A stretch of DNA of 38,373 nt from Chiloscyllium plagiosum. Taxonomy: Eukaryota. The position numbers and the translations under genes are program-made. How positions within the stretch are numbered: position 1 is the stretch's first letter; each line of letters opens with the position of its first letter. Shown here in pieces: positions 991-36,859 of the stretch. The notes under the pieces were generated by a model. The model was not told where the DNA came from and did no database searches. It saw only the letters and a list, made by a program, of their open reading frames with translations. The stretch lies in assembly GCF_004010195.1 (NCBI RefSeq), contig NC_057718.1, forward strand, positions 40,420,712 to 40,459,084, given 5' to 3'.

Positions 991-1167
991 TATCGCTGCT
1001 GAAAATGTGTTGCTGGAAAAGCACAGCAGGTCAGGCAGCATCCAGGGAACAGGAGAATTGACGTTTCGGGTATAAGAGATGGAAATGTGTTGCTGGAGAA
1101 GCGCAGCAGGTCAGGCAGCATCTAGGGAACAGGAGAATCGACGTTTCGGGTATAAGCCCTTCTTCAG
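991..1167 (-). mobile_element. Short PLE-type / hammerhead-bearing repeat, partial tandem of two units (1001-1076, 1082-1167)
   Basis: Two near-identical ~76-86 bp units (aaatgtgttgctgga..gcagcaggtcaggcagcatc..gggaacaggagaat.gacgtttcgggtataag). Minus strand of the second unit reads CTGAAGA-A-GGGcttataCCC-GAAA-CGTC. Flanked by an imperfect direct repeat ggcttatgtagataa (976-990) / ggcttagttagataa (1168-1182). Confidence 0.75.
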
Positions 1168-3582: not shown

Positions 3583-3606
3583 GCAGAAATTGTATGTAAT
3601 ATGTAA

Positions 3607-3840
3607 TAAAAGCTGTAAGTCCTGGAAAAATCTCAGTAAGTCTGACAGCATCTTTGAAGATGGAATTATAGTTAATGTTTCAAGTCTCATATGGCATTTC
3701 TTCAGAACTACTAGAAGAGTCATATTGGACTCAAAACATTCATACTGTTTCTCTGCCTACAGGTGCTGCCAGACGTGTTGAGTTTTTCCAGACTTACTGT
3801 TTTCATTTCAGATTTCCAGAATCCACAGTATTTTGTGTTT
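3607..3840. repeat. Inverted pair of older PLE-type terminal repeats with degenerate hammerhead cores at the centre
   Basis: Left arm (ctggaaaaatctcagtaagtctgacagcatct..aatgtttcaagtc..tcttcag) is a diverged reverse complement of the right arm (gaagagtcatattggactcaaaacatt..ggtgctgccagacgtgttgagtttttccag). Stem gagtc/gactc is retained. Confidence 0.65.
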
Positions 3841-3944
3841 ATTCGTGGATAATGTGTATTTAGTTGGGATATTGTTCACTGCTGATGTGTTTTGCCTTTA
3901 GGATTCAAAGTTGGAAAAGCATGTAGACAGTTTGAGATAAAAGC

Positions 3945-7257: not shown

Positions 7258-8559
7258 TGCAGTTTGGTCGTTTGAGGTAGATTCCCCACAACTGGTTTTG
7301 GGAAGGAATTGGCTCTACACAAAAAGAAAAATGGATAGAAAATTGGTCTCTTGATTTTATTTTCTTCTAACTTGTTTCTACTCTTGCTACTCCCTCATTA
7401 GTGCTAGAATATGCCCTTCATCAGCTTGAGGAATTTATTTTTTAATGTTTGTCCAGCTGGAGTTTCCATTTTGTTTCTCGTATTAAAAATTGCCAACATA
7501 CTCGATGGCTGTGGCGATGCTCCATCATACCAACTTCTGTAGACTGTTTTGATTCTCCATGGTTTATGACTTCAAAATTCTTGTTCTATGTTCTCAATTT
7601 TCTCCTATGTCTTTTCCTACTCCGTTTTAGCTCCACCAGCTTACTCATATTCCCTGACTAAGTTTGTATAGGTTTTCTCTCTTTTCAAAAACAGCCTCAG
7701 AGCCCTTCTTTAAATGCTTTCACCCCTAATTTCAAACTATCCATTTTCCCCCTCATGTGCTGACTTTTTTTTCCTCAGTGTAAAATATCTCGTAATACCA
7801 CCCTGCATGTGAGGAGTGTCACGGAAATGCAAGTTGCAATTGTTTCTTGTTCATTCTTGACCAGTTCCCAATGTTTGATACACTGTGTTACTGCTGTCAA
7901 ATAGAGATTCCAGCTTTACACATTGAATGTAACAAAGTGTTACATCTCGATGGTCTAATTTATTCAATGAGCTTTTTGGCAATGTAGAAATAGCAAGAGT
8001 AGTGTAAACCATGAAAATGTAAAGGACGACTCAAAGTAGATTGTAAACAACATGCATTTTACATTAGAAGAATGTTCTATTTAGTTTGGAAATGACAAAG
8101 TTATTTCTAATTTGAATAATAACATTTGATTCAGGTTAAGCAAACAAAGAATAATCTGCAGCAACAGAAGAAAATGCCCTTTATGTGCTCATATTTTCTG
8201 TTAACTCTTCAATCACCAGTTTGCTTAATACTATGTTGCCAAGTGTTTGATTGATCTACTTTGGGACTCAGCAACAAAAGTAAGTGCAAAAATAAGTTGA
8301 CACTACTATTTTTGTTTTAGCGATTTTATTGCCTGAAAATCCTCACTACATTTGCAGGGATGAAGCAATAATTTAGAAATAACAGTTATACCAAACCTTC
8401 TGCTTTTTAGCATTTTCTCAGCATATAAATTCAATGGCGTATGATGGAAAAGTATTGAGTACGATCGTATAAAGGAATTTTACTTTAAACCTTTTAAAAT
8501 TTTCAGCAAACTTATTTTCAGAACAATAAGGACAAAATTGCTGTTGCTACTACAAACCC

Positions 8560-10070: not shown

Positions 10071-10121
10071 CAATGTTAGCTCTTTAAAGTGATATTGAGA
10101 TTCAATTACTTGTCATGAAAA

Positions 10122-10330
10122 TAAAATATTGTGGATATTAGAAATCCGAAAACAATAAGTGCTGGCAAAACTCAGCAGGTCTGGCAGCATTCTGAGAAGA
10201 GTAAAACAGAACAAATGTTTCGAGTTGATTATCTTTTCTTCAGTTCACAACTTGAGACATTAACTCTGTTTCTGTCCTTACAGATGTTGCTAGACCTGCT
10301 GAATTTCTCCTGCACTTACTGTTCTTGTTC
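10122..10330. repeat. Inverted pair of older PLE-type terminal repeats
   Basis: taagtgctggcaaaactcagcaggtctggcagcatt..aacagaacaaatgtttcgagttg is mirrored by caacttgagacattaactctgttt..atgttgctagacctgctgaatttctcctgcactta. Minus-strand CTGAAGA..CGAAACATT remnant lies near the centre. Confidence 0.7.
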
Positions 10331-15318: not shown

Positions 15319-15782
15319 TGGAATATGCTGAAAGGCCTCAGGGGCTATTTTATCTAAAAGCCTCAACCGAGACTGAAACCTTTAGCAACTGACATGAATT
15401 CTGGGTAAACCAAAATGGAGGATGGGAAAAATTTCTGCCTGTAACAGCTGCTCCTTTTTTGAGGTGATTTCCTCGAATTCCAGTGCAGTAATTACTGTTT
15501 TATATGCTGTTGGATTGTTTTGGAACTTTGGAAAAAAAAAGTCAAAACAACAGCAGTTTTAAAAGGGAGAAGAACAGACAAAGGAAGCACATGGTGAAAT
15601 CAGTGCAGGAGAGAGAGAGAGAGAGAAACTGACACCACAGTGTACCTACACAGTTACTGCCTTTGCATCTAAGAAAATTAACAAACAGTTAATAGACAGT
15701 GAAATTCACAACTATCTTGGAGGAACTATTTGGGTGAAGGTCACAGCACAGAAACAGGTAAGTGAATTGTTTTTAAGTGTGG

Positions 15783-15914
15783 AGAAAGTGAGGTCTGCAG
15801 ATGCTGGAGATCAAAGTTGAAACTTTATTGCTGGAACAGCACAGCAGGTCAGGCAGCATCCAGGGAACAGGAGATTCGACGTTTCGGGCACAGGCCCTTC
15901 TTCAGGAATCAGCT
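15783..15914 (-). mobile_element. 132 bp hammerhead-bearing PLE-type insertion with perfect 16 bp TSD
   Basis: ttgtttttaagtgtgg is duplicated at 15767-15782 and 15915-15930. The paralogous CR1 at ~32515-32530 has a single copy of this site (empty site). Confidence 0.9.
15873..15910 (-). ncRNA. Minimal type I hammerhead ribozyme (predicted)
   Basis: Minus strand: GAUUC-CUGAAGA-A-GGGC-CUGU-GCCC-GAAA-CGUC-GAAUC. Stem I GAUUC/GAAUC and stem II GGGC/GCCC pair perfectly, and palindromic ACGU replaces stem III. Predicted cleavage is after GUC, between 15878 and 15877. Confidence 0.75.
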
Positions 15915-16197
15915 TTGTTTTTAAGTGTGGCCTACAGAAAGTTTGCAGTAGTGAGTAGAGTGGGTTCTTTCTTGATTATGTGTATGGAATGAGCTGCCAG
16001 AGGTAGTGGTGGAGGCTGGTACAATTGCAACATTTTAAGGCATTTGGATGGGTATATGAATAGGAAGAGTTTGGAGGGATATGGGGCGGGTTCTGGCAGG
16101 TGGGACTAGATTGGGTTGGGATATCTGGTTGGCATAGACGGGTTGAACCGAAGGGTCTGTTTCTGTGCTGTACATCTCTGTGACTCCAAGACTATGA

Positions 16198-18063: not shown

Positions 18064-18476
18064 CAGGTAAAATAGCTTAGAATTATTGAATAAATAATTA
18101 AATGCTACAGTTAAGGCAGGGAGGGAACCTTCAGAGTTCTATGTATTACATCTGAGATGTGTTAAATCGTCTTCCTCATCTGTGAGTCGTTGCTGGAAGA
18201 ACTGTATAAAATGTTGCAAGAATAGACACAGTGCACTACTAGTCGCATTATACTGCTTTTCTGCACTGCCCTGACAATGTACTTTACCATAACATCAAAA
18301 TCAACACTCTCTAAATCAAATCATTTTTATTTCTCTACAGTGTATACAGAAAAATTACGGTGACTCAATGTTGAATGACTATTTCAAGCTAGACAAATTT
18401 GTCAGCAATTCCCACCAGAAGGATAGCAGATAAGACAGAATTTGGCTGTGTTAACCCCAGATTAGATCATTTGTCT

Positions 18477-18516
18477 AAACTTATCATCTGACCACATCTG
18501 GTCAGATGATAAGTTT
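18477..18516. repeat. Perfect 18 bp inverted repeat with 4 nt loop
   Basis: aaacttatcatctgacca-catc-tggtcagatgataagttt. Confidence 0.95.
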
Positions 18517-18517
18517 T

Positions 18518-18872
18518 GGGGCAACATGGTGGCTCAGCGGTTAGCACGTTCCTTACAGCGCCAGGGATCCGGGTTAAATTCCAGCCTCGGGCGACTGTCT
18601 GTGTGGAGTTTGCACATTCCCCCCGTGTCTGCGTAGGTTTCCTCCAGGTGCGCCGGTTTTCTCCTGTTATCCAAAGAAGTGCAGGTCAGGTGAATTGGCC
18701 ATGCTAAATTGGCCATGCTAAAGTGTTCAGGGATGTGTTGGTTTGGGGCATTAGTCGGGGAAAATGTAGAGTAATAGGGTAGGGAAATGGGTATGGGTAG
18801 GTTACTCTTCGAAGGGTCAGTGTGGACTTGTTGGGTTGAAGGGCCTGTTTCTACACTGTAGAGATTCTATGA
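18518..18872 (+). mobile_element. HE1-type tRNA-derived SINE
   Basis: A box (tggctcagcggtt), B box (gggttaaattcc), central tgtgtggagtttgcacatt.c.cc.gtgtctgcg domain and a CR1-like 3' end (gaagggcctgtttctacactgta..attctatga). Contains an internal 14 bp tandem duplication of aattggccatgcta. Confidence 0.92.
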
Positions 18873-19618: not shown

Positions 19619-20037
19619 ATAAATCAAAATGAAGAAACTTTTAAAATCAGATGAAGCAGTTCTGTTTAACCATCTTTTTGCCAGATCACTCTTTTTTGAT
19701 TAGGGATGAAATGTTTAACGGTGGAAAGCACAATAAGGAATGTGTCATGGTTCTGACTGGTGTTAACATGGATGGCGTCGAGAAACAGACGTGCCTCGTA
19801 CTAGGAATATCTGGGAAGCCAGGATGCCTCAGAAATGTCAAGAAATATCCATGTGTGCTTTGCGAATAAGGTCACCTGGAACACTTGCACCATTTTTTGA
19901 GGCATAGATCAGGAAAGTGGATGAACTGTTTCAACAAAAGCAAAGATTTTTGTCATCATTGCAGACAATTTTCCTGTGCATCTTAATACTACTGCTTTTG
20001 AACATCAAGCTGATCCTCTTGCCTCCTAACATTACGT

Positions 20038-20170
20038 CTGGCAGCATCCGAGGAGCAGGAGAACCAAGGTTTCGACTCTCCTGCTCCTCGCTTGCTGCCT
20101 GACCTGCTGTGCTTTTCCAGCGCAACATTTTTCAATTCTAATCTCTAGCAGTTGCAGTCCTCACTTTCTC
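20038..20170 (+). mobile_element. PLE-type short repeat with 5' inverted segment, nested in the transposase
   Basis: ggcagcatccgaggagcaggaga is followed by its near-perfect inverse tctcctgctcctcgcttgctgcc. Ends gcagtcctcactttctc like the other copies. Imperfect flanking repeat ctcctaacatt (20023-20033) / ctcctaatatt (20168-20178). Confidence 0.8.
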
Positions 20171-20356: not shown

Positions 20357-20672
20357 GGGCGGCACGGTGGCACAGTGGTTAGCACTGCTGCCTCACAGCA
20401 CCAGAGACCCGGGTTCAATTCCCGCCTCAGGCAACTCTCTGTGTGGAGTTTGCACATTCTCCCTGTGTCTGCGGGGGTTTCCTCCGGGTGCTCCGGTTTC
20501 CTCCCACAGTCCAAAAATGTGCAGGTTAGGTGAATTGCCCGTAGTGAAGGGGTAAATGTAGGAGATGGGTCTGGGTGGGTTACGCTTCGGCAGGTCGGTG
20601 TGGACTTGTTGGGCCAAAGGGCCTGTTTCCATACTGTAAGTAATCTAAAAAAAAAAGTAATCTAATCTAATC
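20357..20672 (+). mobile_element. HE1-type tRNA-derived SINE, relatively young
   Basis: gggcggcacggtggcacagtggttagc (A box), gggttcaattccc (B box), HE1 central domain and (taatc)n tail. Many CpGs are retained. TSD agcactg at 20349-20355 and 20676-20682. Confidence 0.95.
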
Positions 20673-20726: not shown

Positions 20727-20851
20727 CTGATGAAGGGCTCTTGCCAGAAACGTCGATTCTCCTGCTCTTCGAGTGCTGCCTTACCCTCTGTGCTTTTCCA
20801 GCACCACACTCTCGACTCTGATCTCCACCATCTGCAGTCCTCACTTTCTCT
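20727..20851 (+). mobile_element. 125 bp hammerhead-bearing PLE-type insertion with 8 bp TSD
   Basis: Starts exactly at CTGATGA-A-GGGC-tctt-GCCA-GAAA-CGTC and ends cctcactttctct. tgaggggg is duplicated at 20719-20726 and 20852-20859. Confidence 0.85.
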
Positions 20852-28460: not shown

Positions 28461-29516
28461 AAGCTGTAAGAATCAGTCAGCATCATATTCAGCCATATTC
28501 TGTTCTATGATGGTGCTACAATTGGCATGGGTAGCTCCCAGCTTGTTTGGCAGAAAAAACAGTGCCTCTCAGTCACACGTTATGCTTAACCGGTAATGTC
28601 ACATCACTTCTGAGTTGAGCCCTAACACTGTCTAGCTTCAGACCAATACTGAATTGAACTGAAAATGGACTGGCCATTTCTGAATTGAAAAAGCATACTT
28701 CAAGAGTTGCTGGAACCATATGTTACAGCAAGGGACTTCCAGTGTTTATCATATGATTGCTTTATTCTATTTCACAATGCTATTACTGACTTCGTTAGAG
28801 TCATTTCTGATAGACGTTCACAACAGGTTTTCACCTCATAACTTCACTGCGTGTTGTTTTGGAGCATCAGCTGAGACCACAGTTCTTGAGCTAACTGGTT
28901 GCTGTGGGGAGCGTGACACATGTACACGGCATTCTTACTGGAATTAATCCACGCCTGAGGTTTTCTTTGTCGGTGCTGAAATACATTGGGCCATCTGTCC
29001 GACTACATTCCTCAGTAACATACCAGCACTGTGGTTCAGCCACTGAAGTTTACTTAAATTGCTGAAGATTTTTTTAGAAAAACATTCCTTCTACATTCCA
29101 GATAAGCAGATGTCATTCCAAACTCATTGCATGAATTTGTTAAGTTTTAGAACTTTTGCGTGATTCAACAGGTTTTCCTTTGAAGAAATAGTAATTCCTC
29201 GAGATCACAATTCTTGACCTGTGGCAGTATCTTTGTATGAAATAAATATTTAAGTCTGTAAGCAAATGTCAGTGTGTATTAGCTTGCAGAGTTATAATGC
29301 AACCACTCTGAACTTAATCCAAAGAGTTTTTATCTTCCTTTATCACCTTTTTCTAGTTATGTTTACTTGATCCTTCAATTGAAATTGGGCTTTTAGCTCT
29401 TTTTGCCCATAAAAGCCCAATTTTAACTTAGGATGTGAGTGCAGTGTGTGTGGGATGGGTTATAGTTTCAGTTTCATATTTTAGGCCTGAATTCAGAGGA
29501 AATCATGAGGGTAATC

Positions 29517-29664
29517 TCAAATTACTGAAGATGCTGGACATTTGAAATAAAAGAAACTCAAATATTCAGCAGATCGGGTAGTATCTGTGGAATAAAATAG
29601 AGTTAATGTTTCATATTGACCCTTCATCAGAACAGAGAAAATATAGAAATGCATAAGGTTTGCA
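29517..29664 (-). repeat. Older PLE-type terminal repeat, interrupted by a CR1 (resumes ~30200-30292)
   Basis: Minus-strand CTGATGA-AGGGTCAATAT-GAAA-CATT remnant at ~29605-29630. The arm is similar to 10125-10245. Confidence 0.55.
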
Positions 29665-30319: not shown

Positions 30320-30700
30320 ACTCACTCATGCGTGCGCACACACACATACACATAGACTATGTACAACATACATAAAATACACAGACACACATACACAAGT
30401 GGACACACAAAATATAGTCACACATACAACATACAGTACTCAGAGAAACACACACAGACATACACAGACTCACACACAAGTACACATATAAACATACATG
30501 CAACTTACAGCACACAAACAGCACACACATGCATGCAAACAAAATGCAAAGGCACACACAAACGTGCACACACACATACACATATATAAAAAACGCAGAC
30601 ATATGCAAACAAACACACGTGCATATAAACACACAGTCACAGCCACACACATGCGCAGACATGCACACAGGCACAATACACAGACACACACATACGCATG
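30320..30700. repeat. Degenerate (CA)/(TA)-rich microsatellite tract
   Basis: About 380 bp of alternating purine-pyrimidine cacaca/cataca/gcacac sequence. Confidence 0.95.
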
Positions 30701-32689
30701 GCAAAATGTTCACAGACATTTTTCAATTCACTCGTGGGACATGGGTATTGCTGGCTGGCCAGAATTTATTGCCCTTCCCTAGTTGACCCTGAGGAGGTGA
30801 TGATGATCTGCATTCTTGAACCATTGCAATCCATGAAAGTAACATGTGAAGTAACACTTAACTGTCCACCTCTCAATGGTTCAATTGGTTTCTGGTCAGT
30901 GGTTGATCTACTAACCTTCATGCTTGGCAAAGTGACATAGCAATGGGAGGACTTCGGACACATCTCCCCTTATACCCTCGTAACTCTTTCAATAGATTTT
31001 GCTATGCCTGAACTGAAGATTTTGTCAATATTTCCACCTCCCAGTTCATCATCAAAGGGTTGGGAAAAGTTTGGTTGCTGTCTCTAATACTGACCCTTGC
31101 AGCGTGGCATGGGGGTCAGCAGTGGGTCCCAGTTCTGTACACTCTGGTGGGACTGTGTTGAATGCTCAGTGGACTTTCACTCCCTTGATATGTAACATAT
31201 TCTTCCCGTCAGTATTACTTTTACTTCTTGTCTGACTTTATTATCACATTATATTTATTGTGCTATTTTTGTTAAGATTATCTGATATATCTTTTTATAT
31301 GATTTAAATTTGTGACATTTAATACCATTTCTTAGATTTTGGCTTGGTCTTCCCACGTGTCTACTCCAGCTCTGGTCCTCCATAATCCCAAGGTGCAACT
31401 CCCAGCTGTGAGCTTGATGTTTACTGCAGCTGTACTTACTGTGTGAAGATTTATTTAGGTCATTTCAGGGAAACAGTAGTTATTTTCATGCAACTATTCA
31501 ACAACACTTAGTCTACTGTCTTGAGACAGAAGTTTTAGAAACTCGAGTTGTGTTGCCCTTTTCACTTTGTGATCTCAGTATCCCATTTGCTACAATATCA
31601 CCTCTGACTCGTCATGAGCAATGCCAAGGAACATCTGCTGGAAGTTCTTTAAAAGATGATGCTGTCAAATTTTTTCAGTCAGCCCTGTCTGCAATGAGGT
31701 GGAAGGGAAGAGTTACATTCTCGCAGGTGGGCTCGCCTCACTCTTTGGAGTTACTCATCTTGTATTGGGACACACCATCACCCATTTCTCATTCAATGAC
31801 TCCAAGCAAGAGTGGCCACACCTCAATAAACTGTTCTGGTGGGTGATCCACACCTGTTGAGTGTCCTATCCTCATCGACTCAGGGATTTGTCATGCCTGG
31901 CTTGTGAAAACTGATTCTAGTGGGGTGGACAGATGAAACCAATCTAAGATCTTGAGGTTAAGTCAGCGCCATCTTTGAGGGTACCCTCAGGTTAAAAAAA
32001 AGCTCCACCTGGAAATTAAAGTACTGGGTGTACTGGAGCCCCATTATGAGGTATACAAAATAAACCAGACGGGGGAGTGTTGGGTAATCCAAGATAGAGG
32101 ATGGGAATGATTTCTGGCTGTAACAGGCTGCTCCTTTTTTGAATTATTTTAGGTGTTGGAGGTGATTTCCTCGAATTCCAGGAGCAGCAATTACAGTTTT
32201 ATATACTGTTGCATTGTTTTGGAACTTTGGAGAAAAAAAAGTCAAAACAACAGCAGTTTTAAAGAGGAGAGAAACAGTCAAAGGCAGCACATGGTGAAGT
32301 CAGTGCAGGAGAGAGAGAGAGAGAGAGAGAGAAGAAACCCACACTGTTAACTGACACAGCAGTGAACCTGTACAGTTATTGCCTTTGCTGTTTGAATTCA
32401 TGTATCGCTAGACATCGGAGTGAGTCTGGGAAAATTAACTTCCAGCAAAATTCACAACTGATCTTGGAGGAACCTGTTTGGGAGAGGTCACAGCACAGAA
32501 GCAGATAAGTGAATATTTTTAAGTGTGGCCTTACAGAAAGTCTGCAGTAGTGAGTAGATGATATGCTTTATTGAGATACGTCTCTTGATTAAACTTAAAG
32601 ATATAAGCCATAAGTATTAAGTAGCCCTGGAACAGTGTTTTGTAGAAGAATAAGACAGTGCTATTTTCTGGGTCTGCAGACTGGAAGAA

Positions 32690-33611
32690 GTGATATGCTC
32701 TTCTTGTTGGATGTGGGGTTTAGGGAGAGTTTATGTGTTACTGAGGATTATATCTGCAATAAATGTTGTTGGTTGCGAATCCTATAAGATCAAATGGATC
32801 AGTTGGAGAGACAATTAGAGACAATGAGGAATTTACAAGCCCAAGGGGATGTGATGGATGGCAGTTATAGGAAGCGACAAAAATCACAGATACAGTCACG
32901 TAGATGGGTTAACTCCTGGAAAGGTAAGAGAGGTAGGCAGCTAGTGCCAGAGCCTTCTGTGCCTATACCCATTTCAAACAAGTATGCTGTTTTGGAAAAT
33001 GTAGAGGGTGATGGATTCTCAGGGGAACGTAGCATGAACATCCAAGTTTCTGGTATTGAGACTGGCTCTAATGCAACGAGGGGTACGTCGGGTTCAAGAA
33101 ATCAATTGTGTTAGTGCACTCTCTAGTCTGAGGTACAGACAGACGTTTCTGTGGCCAGCAGTGAAAAATCAGAATGGTGTGTTGCTTCCCTGGTGCCAGG
33201 ATCAAGGATGTCTCAGAGAGGGTGCAGAATGTTCTCAAGGGGGAGAGGGGCCAGCAAGAGCTCATTGTCCAAATTGGAACCAACGACATAGGAAGGGAAA
33301 AGGTTGAGATTCTGAAGGGGGATTACAAAGAGTTAGGCAGGAATTTAAAAAGGAGGTCCTCAAGATTAATAATATCTGGATTACTCCCGGTGCTACAAGC
33401 TAGTGAAGGCAGGAATAGGAGGCTAGAGCAGATGAATGCATGGCTGAGGAGCTGGTGTATGGGAAAAGGATTCACATTTTTGGATCATTGGAATCTCTTT
33501 TGGGGTAGAAGTGACCTGTACAAGAAGGACAGATTGCACCTGAATTGGAAGGGGACTAATATACTGTCAGGGAGATTTGTTGGAGCTACTCAGGAGGATT
33601 TAAATTATTAA
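32690..33611 (+). pseudogene. CR1 ORF1: Cys zinc finger, coiled coil and SGNH/GDSL esterase domain
   Basis: VICSSCWMW..YICNKC; MDQLERQLETMRNLQ; IVLVHSLV*GTDRRFCG (decayed GDS block); CFPGARIKDV; IGTNDIG; DLYKKDRLHLNWKG. Confidence 0.9.
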
Positions 33612-33741
33612 GGTGGAGGGGTGGAGGGGAAGGGTGTGGGATCTAGGGAGATAGTGGACAGAGAGAGCAATCTGAGACTGGTACATTTGAGAAAAGAAGC
33701 TTGCCATCAGTCAGGGCAGGCAGGGACAAGGTAGGACTGAT

Positions 33742-36480
33742 AAATTAAACTGCATTTATTTCAATGCAAGGGGCCGAACAGGGAAGGCAGATGAACTCAG
33801 GGCATGGTTAGGAACATGGGACGGGGATATCACAGCAATGACAGAAACATGCTCAGGGATGGACAGGATTGGCAGCTTAATGTTCCAGGATACAAATGCT
33901 ACAGGAAGGACAGAAAGGAAGGCAAGAGAGGAAGCGGGGGTGGTGTATTTGATAAAGGATAGCATTACAGCTGTGCTGAGGGAGGATATTCTCAGAAATA
34001 CATCCAGGGAAGTTATTTGGGTTGAACTGAGAAATAAGAAAGGGATGATCACCTTATTGGGATTGTATTATTGATCCCCTAATAGTCAGAGGGGAATTGA
34101 GAAACAGATTTGTCAGGAGCTCTCAGTTATCTATAAGAATAATATGGTGGTTATGGTAGGGGATTTTACCTTTCCAAACTTAAATTGGAACTGCCATAGT
34201 GTTAAGGGTTTAGATGGAGAGGAATTTGTTAAGTACGTACAAGAAAAGGTGCAAAACTTGACCTACTCTTGGGAAATAAGGCAGGGCAGGTGACTGAGGT
34301 GACAGTGGGGGAGCAGTTTGGGGCCAGTGACTGTAATTCTATTGCTTTTAAAATAATGATGGAAAAAGATCGACCAGATCTAAAAGTTGAAGTTCTAAAT
34401 TGGAGGAAGGCTAATTTTGACGGTATTAGGCTAGAACTTTCAAAAGCTGATTGGCGGCAGATGTTCGCAGGTAAAGGGACGGCTGGAAAATGGGAAGCCT
34501 TCAGAAATGAGACAACGAGAGTCCAGAGAAAGTACATTCCTGTTAGGGTGAAATGAAAGGCTGGTAGGTATAGGGAATGTTGGATGATGAAAAAAATTGA
34601 GGGTTTGGTTCAGAAAAAGAAGAAAGCATGTGTCAGCATGTGTCAAATGAATCCTTAGAAGAGTATAAAGGCAGTAAGAGTTTACTTAAGAGGGAAATCA
34701 CGATGGCAAAAAAGGGACATGAGATAGCTTTGGCAAATAGAGTTCAGGAGAATCCAAAGGGGTTTTTACAAATACATTAAGGACAAAAGGGTAATTAGGG
34801 AGAAAATAGGGCCCCTCATAGATCAGCAAGGCGGCCTTTGTGTGGAACCGCAGGAGGTGGGGGAGATTCTAAACGAGTATTTTGCATCAGTGTTTACTAT
34901 AGAAAAGGACATGGAAGATATAGAATGTGGGGAAATAGATGGTGACATTTTGAAAAACGTCCATATTACAGAGGAGGAAGTGCTGGATGTCTTGAAACGC
35001 ATAAAAGTGGATAAATCCCTAGGACCTGATCTGGTGTACCCTAGCTTCTGTGGGAAGCTAGGGAAGTGATTGCGGGGCTTCGTAGTGTGATATTTGTATC
35101 ATCAGTAGTCAGAGGTGAGGTGTTGGAAGACTGGAGGTTGGCTAACATGGTGCCACAGTTTAAGAAGGTAGTAAGGACAAGCCAGGGAACTATAGACCGG
35201 TGAGCCTGATGTCGATGGCGGGCAAGTTATTGAAGGGAATCCTGAGGGACAGGATGTGCATGTATGTGGAAAGGCAAGGACTGATTATGGATAGTCAACA
35301 TGACTTTGTGCGTGGGAAATCATGTCTCAAACTCGATGGAGCTTTTTAAAGAAGTAACAAAGAGGATTGATGGGGGCAGAGCGGTGGATGTGATCTATCT
35401 GGACTTCAATAAGGCATTCGACAAGGTTCCCCATGCGAGACTAGTTAACAGAGTTAGATCTCATGGAATACAGGGAGAACTAGCCATTTGGATACACAAC
35501 TGGCTCAAAGGTAGAAGACGGAAAGTGGTGGTGGAGGGTTGTTTTTCAGACTGGAGGCCTGTGACCAGTGGAGTGCCACAAGGATCGGTGCTGGGTCCAC
35601 TACTTTTCGTCATTTATATAAATAATTTGGATGTGAGCATAAGAGGTATAGTTAGTAAGTTTGCAGTTGACACCAAAATTGGAGGTGTAGTGGACAGCGA
35701 AGAGGGTTACCTCAGATTACAACAGGATCTGGACCAGATGGCTAATGGGCTGAGAAGTGGCAGATGGAGTTTAATTTAGATAAATGCGAGGTGCTGCATT
35801 TTGGGAAAGCAAATCTTAGCAGGACTTATACACTTACTGGTAAGGTCTCAGGAGTGTTGCTAAACAAAGATAACTTTGGAATGCAGGTTCATGGCTCCTT
35901 GAAAGTGGATTCGCAGGTAGATAGGATAGTGAAAAAGGCATTTGGTATGCTTTCCTTTATTGCTCAGAGTATTGAGTACACGAGTTGGGACGTCATGTTG
36001 CGGCTGTACAGGACATTGGTTAGGCCACTTTTGGAATATTGCGTGCAATTCTGATCTCCTTCCTATCTGAAGGAAGTTGTGAAACTTGAAAGGTTTCAGA
36101 AAAGATTTACAAGGAAGTTGCCAAGGTTGGAGGATTTGAGCTATAGGGAGAGGTTGAATAGGCTAGGGCAGTTTTCCCTGGAGCGTCAGAGGCTGCGGGA
36201 TGACCTTATAGAGGTCTATAATATCACGATAGGGTAAATAGACAATGTCTCTTTCCTGGGGTGGGGAGTCCAGAACATAGGTTTAGGGTGAGAAGGGACA
36301 GATATAAAAGAGACCTAAGGGGCAACGTTTTCACGCAGAGGGTTGTACATGTATGGAATGAGCTGCCAGAGGAAGTGGTGGAGGCTGGTACAGTTGCAAC
36401 ATTCAAAAAGGCATTTGGATGGGTATATGAATAGGAAAGGTTTGGAGGGATATGGGCTAGGTGCTGGCAGGTGTGACTAG
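33742..36480 (+). pseudogene. CR1 ORF2: APE endonuclease and reverse transcriptase
   Basis: KLNCIYFNAR; AMTET; VMVGDF; LDLLLGN; GASDCN; YLDFNKAFDKVPH; GVPQGSVLGPLLF; KFAVDTK (FADD mutated); LYRTLVRPLLEYCVQF. Confidence 0.95.
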
Positions 36481-36859
36481 ATTGGGTAGGATATCTGGTC
36501 GGCATGGATGGGTTGGACAGAAGGGTCTGATTCCGTGCTGTACATCTCTATGACTCTAAATAGATGTCATCTCAAGTCCTATTGGTTTGTCAATTTAGGA
36601 TGTTCTGTAAAATGTGGAACTTGACAAGACACAAAAAAATCCCTGTCACTCATTACATCTAGTTCTATCATCAACTATCTCGACTTGTAATGCCACTGGG
36701 TCAAGGTACATCAGGCTGAGAGAGTACAACTGATACTATACAACTTTGCCTCACTATTATCCAATTCACGTGCAAGTCATGTTTGTCAACTTTCTCTCAT
36801 CGGTCTGTCACAAACCTTGTGGAGCTGAGTAAATGAAGAAGCAGTAGGTATGGATTCAC

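Follow-up and report, generated by a model that had tools for sequence, protein, structure and literature searches.

A hammerhead-bearing 132-bp insertion in a shark CR1 element, most likely the short end of an abundant Penelope-like element

The window analysed here, a 38,373-nucleotide stretch of the Chiloscyllium plagiosum genome, contains two CR1 LINEs. One is decayed and near full-length (32081-36560), with a GDSL/SGNH esterase ORF1 at 33165-33608 as well as endonuclease and reverse transcriptase (RT) pieces; the other is represented by a 5' region at 15402-15959, which hosts the focal insertion of 132 bp at 15783..15914 (minus strand), read below as a pseudo-LTR (pLTR)-plus-tail stub of a Penelope-like element (PLE). 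A comparison of the flanking repeats revealed an exact 16-bp target site duplication (TSD) on the plus strand, with its left copy at 15767..15782 and its right copy at 15915..15930; this scored 16, the best of 300 random pseudo-boundaries scoring 9. The sequence-only reading had claimed an empty site in the paralogous CR1 5' region, and sequence comparison bore this out, as the paralog (32081-32558) contains the target once, at about 32513-32528 on the plus strand. Together, the exact TSD and the empty paralogous site confirm that the focal copy is a genuine retro-insertion. Some contigs of a public run (X18, see below) bypass the insert, e.g., one in which 15766 is joined to 15915; these may come from other CR1 copies or from an empty allele. 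Elsewhere in the window there are two SINE copies with a tRNA-like head (18519-18860 and 20357-20640; about 82% alike), putatively HE1, the first having a 14-bp internal duplication at 18693-18722. Directly before its tRNA-like head at 18519 lies a perfect inverted repeat with 16-bp arms (18475-18518, arms within 18479-18514), and the Rfam miRNA matches to this segment were far under threshold.

Pattern matching and folding predicted a minimal type I hammerhead at 15873..15910 on the minus strand of the insertion. Its 5-bp stem I would pair 15910-15906 with 15877-15873; the core CUGAAGA (15905-15899) is followed by an extra A at 15898, a 4-bp stem II (15897-15894 paired with 15889-15886) and GAAA (15885-15882), and an ACGU palindrome (15882-15879) stands in place of helix III. 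Folding alone places the predicted cut between 15878 and 15877. The last five bases of the insertion (15910-15914) depart from the family continuation and lengthen stem I to 5 bp; they might have been added without a template, mark a subfamily difference or derive from a short first exon. An isolated CUGAUGA-A-GGGC start was also found at 7404-7424 (minus), the rest of the unit being absent there (nhmmer E 8.4); this is probably a chance match or a scrap.

Positions within the family are given relative to the first base of CUGANGA (+1), which puts the cut site after +28 and the 3' end of the focal copy at +123/124. We compared the focal copy with three other young insertions. That at 991..1167 (minus) is a tail-less, partial head-to-tail tandem (period 80, 1.9 copies, arms 93.5% alike) with arms running from about 0 to +91 and from +12 to about +90, the +12 and +90 ends being placed by eye from the alignment; the hammerhead core is present in the distal arm only, where stem I is weak. 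The insertion at 20036..20170 is a head-to-head inversion, lacks CUGANGA and folds with z = -5.9; its left arm (20036-20074) is antisense and covers +20 to about +60, and its right arm (20072-20170) is sense, covers +27 to +124, has the tail and begins at about the hammerhead cut site. This sense arm is the sole arm compatible with a cleaved template, the arms overlap on a 4-base palindrome (20066-20075), and the approximate unit length of the whole is a coincidence. The third, at 20727..20851 (plus), is a single arm with tail (+1 to +124) that starts at the first base of CUGAUGA, such that the 5' strand of stem I is absent, and its first stem II pair is broken. That there are four related insertions with flanking direct repeats, as first noticed from the letters, was upheld: besides the focal 16 bp, we found 15 bp with two mismatches at 976-990/1168-1182 (score 7 under a 1-mismatch null, reached by 14 of 300 pseudo-boundaries and thus the weakest), 11 bp with one mismatch at 20023-20033/20168-20178 (score 8, reached by 4/300), and 8 bp exact at 20719-20726/20852-20859 (score 8, likewise 4/300). 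Sequence comparison also bore out that three copies have a common 3' end and that three carry CUGANGA-A...GAAACGUC.

Three further insertions belong to an older family, namely head-to-head pairs on decayed hammerheads at 3606..3845 (core 3705, minus; tail on the right arm only) and 10115..10330 (core 10243, minus; tail on the left arm only), and a single minus-strand arm with a decayed hammerhead at 29510..29635 (core 29630; nhmmer E 0.018); their flanking repeats are at chance level. In total the window has seven insertions, all of them pure end stubs of 125-240 bp, including one partial tandem and three head-to-head inversions, each inversion with a tail on one arm only. The optional 3' tail is about 34 nt long (15783..15815, minus, in the focal copy) and recurs in 20072-20170 and 20727-20851; it is in neither arm of 991-1167. 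The six young arms end 3' at +124 (three), about +90 (two) and about +60 (one), and their 5' ends range from -8 to +27; among all 11 arms in the window, six (three young, three old) begin no more than about 8 nt before CUGANGA, and the others start within the motif. The clustering of 5' ends at the hammerhead exceeds what random truncation would give, and the four young copies are not units of one design. A self-contained non-autonomous unit of ~130 bp, as originally proposed, found no clear support, given the three 3' ends and the spread of 5' ends in the young arms, together with shared sequence past the hammerhead end (see below). The expectation attached to that proposal, that the termini should not be random, stood in part: the 3' end is fixed and the 5' ends are clustered, yet the pattern is that of PLE end stubs.

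We then considered conservation of the motif. In an alignment of six window copies, three from the older family, all 11 core positions are invariant compared to 7 of 40 other gap-free columns, a count that is partly circular in that the old cores were first spotted with the core pattern (though BLASTN with the remainder of the unit also recovered two of them). Covariation in stems I and II is modest, with seven cells changed on both sides, a value that 5 of 500 shuffles reach in these six related sequences, and six slid controls all fell below the real stems. The motif is of the minimal, PLE kind that had been claimed, complete in the focal copy only: among the four young insertions it alone keeps both stems, and the ribozymes of the other three are damaged or missing. 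Among the 40 of 72 variant rows listed, the large variants near the motif sit in loop II and at N7, and core variants stay below 3% in X18 and reach up to 12% in X22. Against an intact ribozyme, ~70% of the family differs at 15875 in a way that disrupts the third pair of stem I. The fold of the entire 132-nt unit is not better than shuffles (z -0.62), which points to no special circle-like structure; a double hammerhead was computed at -21.3 kcal/mol, compared to -11.2 per monomer. A lone copy, being unable to form stem III, probably does not cut. No hammerhead was among 13 weak Rfam matches at E up to 5, so the comparison with Rfam that had been suggested gave no support; the Rfam hammerhead models presumably expect helix III.

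The abundance of the family was assessed in public runs with 270 bases as the query at 85% likeness; matches were obtained to 37,743 of 21.6 million contigs in X18, to 2,629 of 13.0 million raw RNA reads in X22, and to 1,670 contigs in X9; X23 gave no match, which carries no weight as evidence. Summed depth in X18, which is not a copy number, was 1.6-10.6 million inside the unit and ranged from the order of 10^3 to at most 149,000 in the CR1 flanks, in agreement with the four young insertions in 38 kb (a young copy per ~10 kb of the window); the family is very abundant, as had been supposed. Gene models from Chiloscyllium punctatum, C. plagiosum and Hemiscyllium ocellatum include translations of the unit, so the family is present in these sharks and the claim of a shark family is corroborated; we read these models as repeats caught in predicted exons. 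Among the rows listed, copies in three runs end abruptly on the 3' side at 15780-15782, where their flanks are mixed and A/T-rich, and flank agreement at 15779-15782 is 0.34-0.44 in four of six rows; the other two (0.86 and 0.64) look like one locus each. The former comprises 177 X22 reads with one flank before 15782, in which there is a poly(A)-signal-like hexamer on the minus strand, and is probably a single host 3' UTR ending just past a copy. RNA reads in X22 fall on both strands, and no pile-up of RNA ends, at the cut site or elsewhere, was found in this poly(A) single-cell library, to which a 130-nt circle would be invisible.

At the other end, the loose ends behind 15909 listed for X18 (111 records), X22 (301 reads, of about 690 near there) and X9 (23 records) share one common continuation, of which 30 letters are visible with an agreement of 0.38-0.49, and part of the family therefore runs at least 30 nt further 5' than the focal copy. 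The window lacks this continuation (3 matches at 3 mismatches, 3.6 being expected). Counted by eye, 13 of the continuation's first 20 letters agree with the tail of the unit when aligned at a 129-bp period, with a binomial p of 0.0006-0.003 for a register picked after seeing the data. Reads from true tandems may bias the consensus toward the tail, but one X9 contig end bears the distal part of the continuation; possibly there is a decayed tandem copy of the tail upstream of the hammerhead in the master. The joints listed, each at a depth of 50 or less, include one that switches strand (15820/15859) and others that lead back to the tail end from 15813, 15858, 15865 and 15910, and one contig has a head-to-tail joint from 15910 to 15781. 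The loose ends at 15828-15829 were left out as evidence for a tail-less class because their consensus continues as family sequence.

Searches for a coding parent returned no PLE protein. Pfam found no PLE domain in 100 of the 105 window ORFs of at least 70 residues, the matches being CR1 domains and two below the cutoff; the five frames omitted lie over the simple-repeat tract 30356-30783. Protein searches with two frames of the unit matched solely host gene models and chance sequences. One of these, the frame beginning MLPDLL (15859-15782, minus), has no stop before the 3' end of the focal copy, is open in several others, and was considered as the N-terminus of the parent; this was not supported, as only two shark host gene models and two unrelated repeats matched. 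Shark gene models use this frame as an exon or N-terminus, and the frame from 20730 matched one shark gene model. A 19-base core pattern had no match in viral contigs, its 48 metagenome loci were dismissed as chance (matches of at most 28 bases), and the hammerhead pattern had no match in GTDB contigs. We also rejected a SINE identity for the unit, since no pol III A or B box was found at up to two mismatches to the consensus and ARAGORN predicted no tRNA genes; this is in keeping with the earlier statement that the unit is neither a SINE nor a MITE.

Based on these observations, the insert is probably a pLTR-plus-tail stub of an endonuclease-bearing (EN+) PLE, without a coding body, for which reverse transcription started at an internal site; the kind is already known, and most likely we are dealing with the short end of an ordinary, very abundant PLE rather than with a novel kind of element. 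Mobilisation by PLE machinery, which the sequence-only reading had put forward, is supported as far as sequence comparison goes. The PLE protein would make staggered nicks in the target, giving the observed duplications of 8-16 bp, and reverse transcription would start at a fixed internal RNA site, ~96 nt past the cut site of the hammerhead in the 3' direction, or ~34 nt nearer to it at a second site. Two start sites would account for the two 3' ends observed, a mechanism borrowed from the PLE of the green anole (PAc); as the ends lie ~116 and ~82 nt past the start of stem II, we read the inserts as cDNAs begun at two PAc-like sites. Copying would mostly halt in or just 5' of the hammerhead, perhaps most simply because the main RNA begins there, such that priming in the 5' pLTR would run off after ~130 nt in a manner resembling retroviral strong-stop synthesis; run-off and stalling at the ribozyme fold have about even odds. 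Longer copies would stem from priming in the downstream pLTR, and re-priming or strand switching may have produced the partial tandems and head-to-head pairs that we observed. The hammerhead itself would be the parent's ribozyme, passively carried. Since copies extend through the cut site, the template appears to be mostly uncleaved, and the 5' boundary lies elsewhere, most arms running across this site. Three points count against the PLE stub, namely that no RT or GIY-YIG sequence is tied to the unit, that the 5' ends cluster at the hammerhead beyond what random truncation would give, and that the tail-like upstream continuation would also be given by a short master derived from a tandem.

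The last two points bring up an explanation that we regard as unlikely but worth taking seriously, that of a dedicated non-autonomous PLE derivative in which a short non-coding pLTR-plus-tail master RNA (~130 nt or longer) is amplified in trans, as for a SINE; this is the view of the sequence-only reading. Six of the 11 arms share the modal 5' end within about 8 nt upstream of CUGANGA, four young copies occur in 38 kb with no coding body in the window, the descendant of a head-to-tail dimer would give a continuation resembling a decayed tail at a 129-bp period, the contig joint from 15910 to 15781 is head-to-tail, and non-autonomous PLE families that form pLTRs are known (MRC1, PMC8557442). 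However, the same anatomy is seen in the older divergent family, as expected of PLE ends generally, what autonomous PLEs leave behind is reportedly in most cases a single terminal repeat (10.64898/2026.07.22.740005), neither a promoter nor a separate master was identified, and part of the family continues upstream. The more specific version, in which a ~130-nt hammerhead-to-tail RNA is the main mobile unit in these sharks, PLE-dependent and with a master that arose from a head-to-tail dimer, we consider doubtful.

Far less probable is a non-LTR retrozyme proper, whose tandem monomers would self-cleave, circularise and undergo rolling-circle reverse transcription. The type I hammerhead has a dimer-forming palindrome and a double-hammerhead fold is feasible, and retrozymes have been reported from one chondrichthyan genome (10.64898/2026.07.22.740005), but the sole tandem in the window has a period of 80, breaks inside stem II and holds one core, and is for these reasons not the monomer repeat of a circle; the full-monomer tandem that would be its hallmark is absent from the window. 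Moreover, the motif is of the minimal PLE type, whereas the retrozymes of coral, mussel and axolotl have the canonical one (PMC7229834), copies neither begin nor end at the cut site (one arm excepted), and only one of the four young insertions has an undamaged ribozyme. Scarcely credible is a solo pLTR produced when the two pLTRs of a full-length insertion recombined. One terminal repeat within an intact TSD does fit the solo-LTR pattern, and solo pLTRs are mentioned in PMC3846280, but those described in that paper are without TSDs, and recombination fails to account for the variable 5' ends or for 80-bp partial tandems and head-to-head pairs flanked by a TSD.

Read as a PLE stub, the insert is an ordinary but clean PLE end insertion, and the family provides a very large natural set of insertions, from the two ends of which the start and stop points of PLE reverse transcription can be read. 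What the PLE hammerhead does is described as unsettled (PMC8557442). That the 5' ends gather directly before the core, instead of at the cut site, is a clue, from which one would expect an uncleaved template and, at that point, either the start of transcription or a splice junction. Should the short unit prove to have a master to itself, sharks would have a major non-autonomous PLE family in it, and if a ~130-nt RNA is the main mobile unit it would be a SINE-scale family for a third class of retroelement and a step between the pLTR and the retrozyme. The literature that we searched, which lay outside Dfam, Repbase and bioRxiv supplements, contained no account of the hammerhead or ends of this shark family, and no paper found there used strong-stop wording for a PLE run-off product. 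PLEs are reported as expanded in whale shark introns (10.1101/443036, PMC8455134).

The insertions have several counterparts among described elements. Animal non-LTR retrozymes (PMC7229834, 10.64898/2026.07.22.740005) are likewise small, non-coding and PLE-related, with a type I hammerhead and dispersed monomers; unlike anything in the window, theirs are tandem units with a full hammerhead in each, and they give abundant circular RNAs of 150-450 nt with canonical hammerheads (PMC7229834). Another counterpart is the minimal hammerhead of metazoan PLEs (PMC4209133), which shares the type I arrangement, the conserved core, the extra base between 9 and 10.1, the G10.1-C11.1 pair, the palindromic 15.2-16.2 and the lack of a stable helix III. 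These motifs are mostly single and related to truncated PLEs, and the intron of the Drosophila virilis PLE ends at helix I (PMC4209133). Stem II has 4 bp here as opposed to 7-8 bp in the Schistosoma families of that paper, and two of its three supplementary files contained no shark term. In the arrangement of their ends, our insertions resemble those of EN+ PLEs (PMC3846280, PMC8557442) in having a fixed 3' end, an optional one-arm tail of 30-40 nt, heavy 5' truncation, a partial tandem and head-to-head inversions; for PLEs, partial tandems, an adjacent inverted copy and a tail at one end (PMC8557442, PMC3846280), a tail of 30-40 nt and RT start sites within the pLTR (both PMC8557442), and a tail lying between two RT start sites (PMC11167929) are all described. 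TSDs are 8-16 bp here and 8-10 bp in the Adineta examples. The differences are that seven of seven insertions are pure stubs of 125-240 bp with no linked ORF and that the 5' ends are piled at the hammerhead. A further counterpart is PAc, the Poseidon element of the green anole. Its protein, when purified, nicks A/T-rich DNA and initiates reverse transcription at two internal positions of the RNA, of which the main one is 111-118 nt after the start of stem II (PMC11167929). There, uncleaved RNA is the main template, a shorter RNA 5' end gives a shorter product, cleavage is dispensable in vitro, and no RNA-seq ends fall at the cut site (PMC11167929). The PAc ORF starts at stem II and stays open, whereas here that frame stops inside the unit. 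As in PAc, the hammerhead lies about 85-95 nt upstream of what would be the internal RT start and two such sites would define the tail, and the mixed A/T-rich 3' flanks of the shark copies are in line with its A/T preference.
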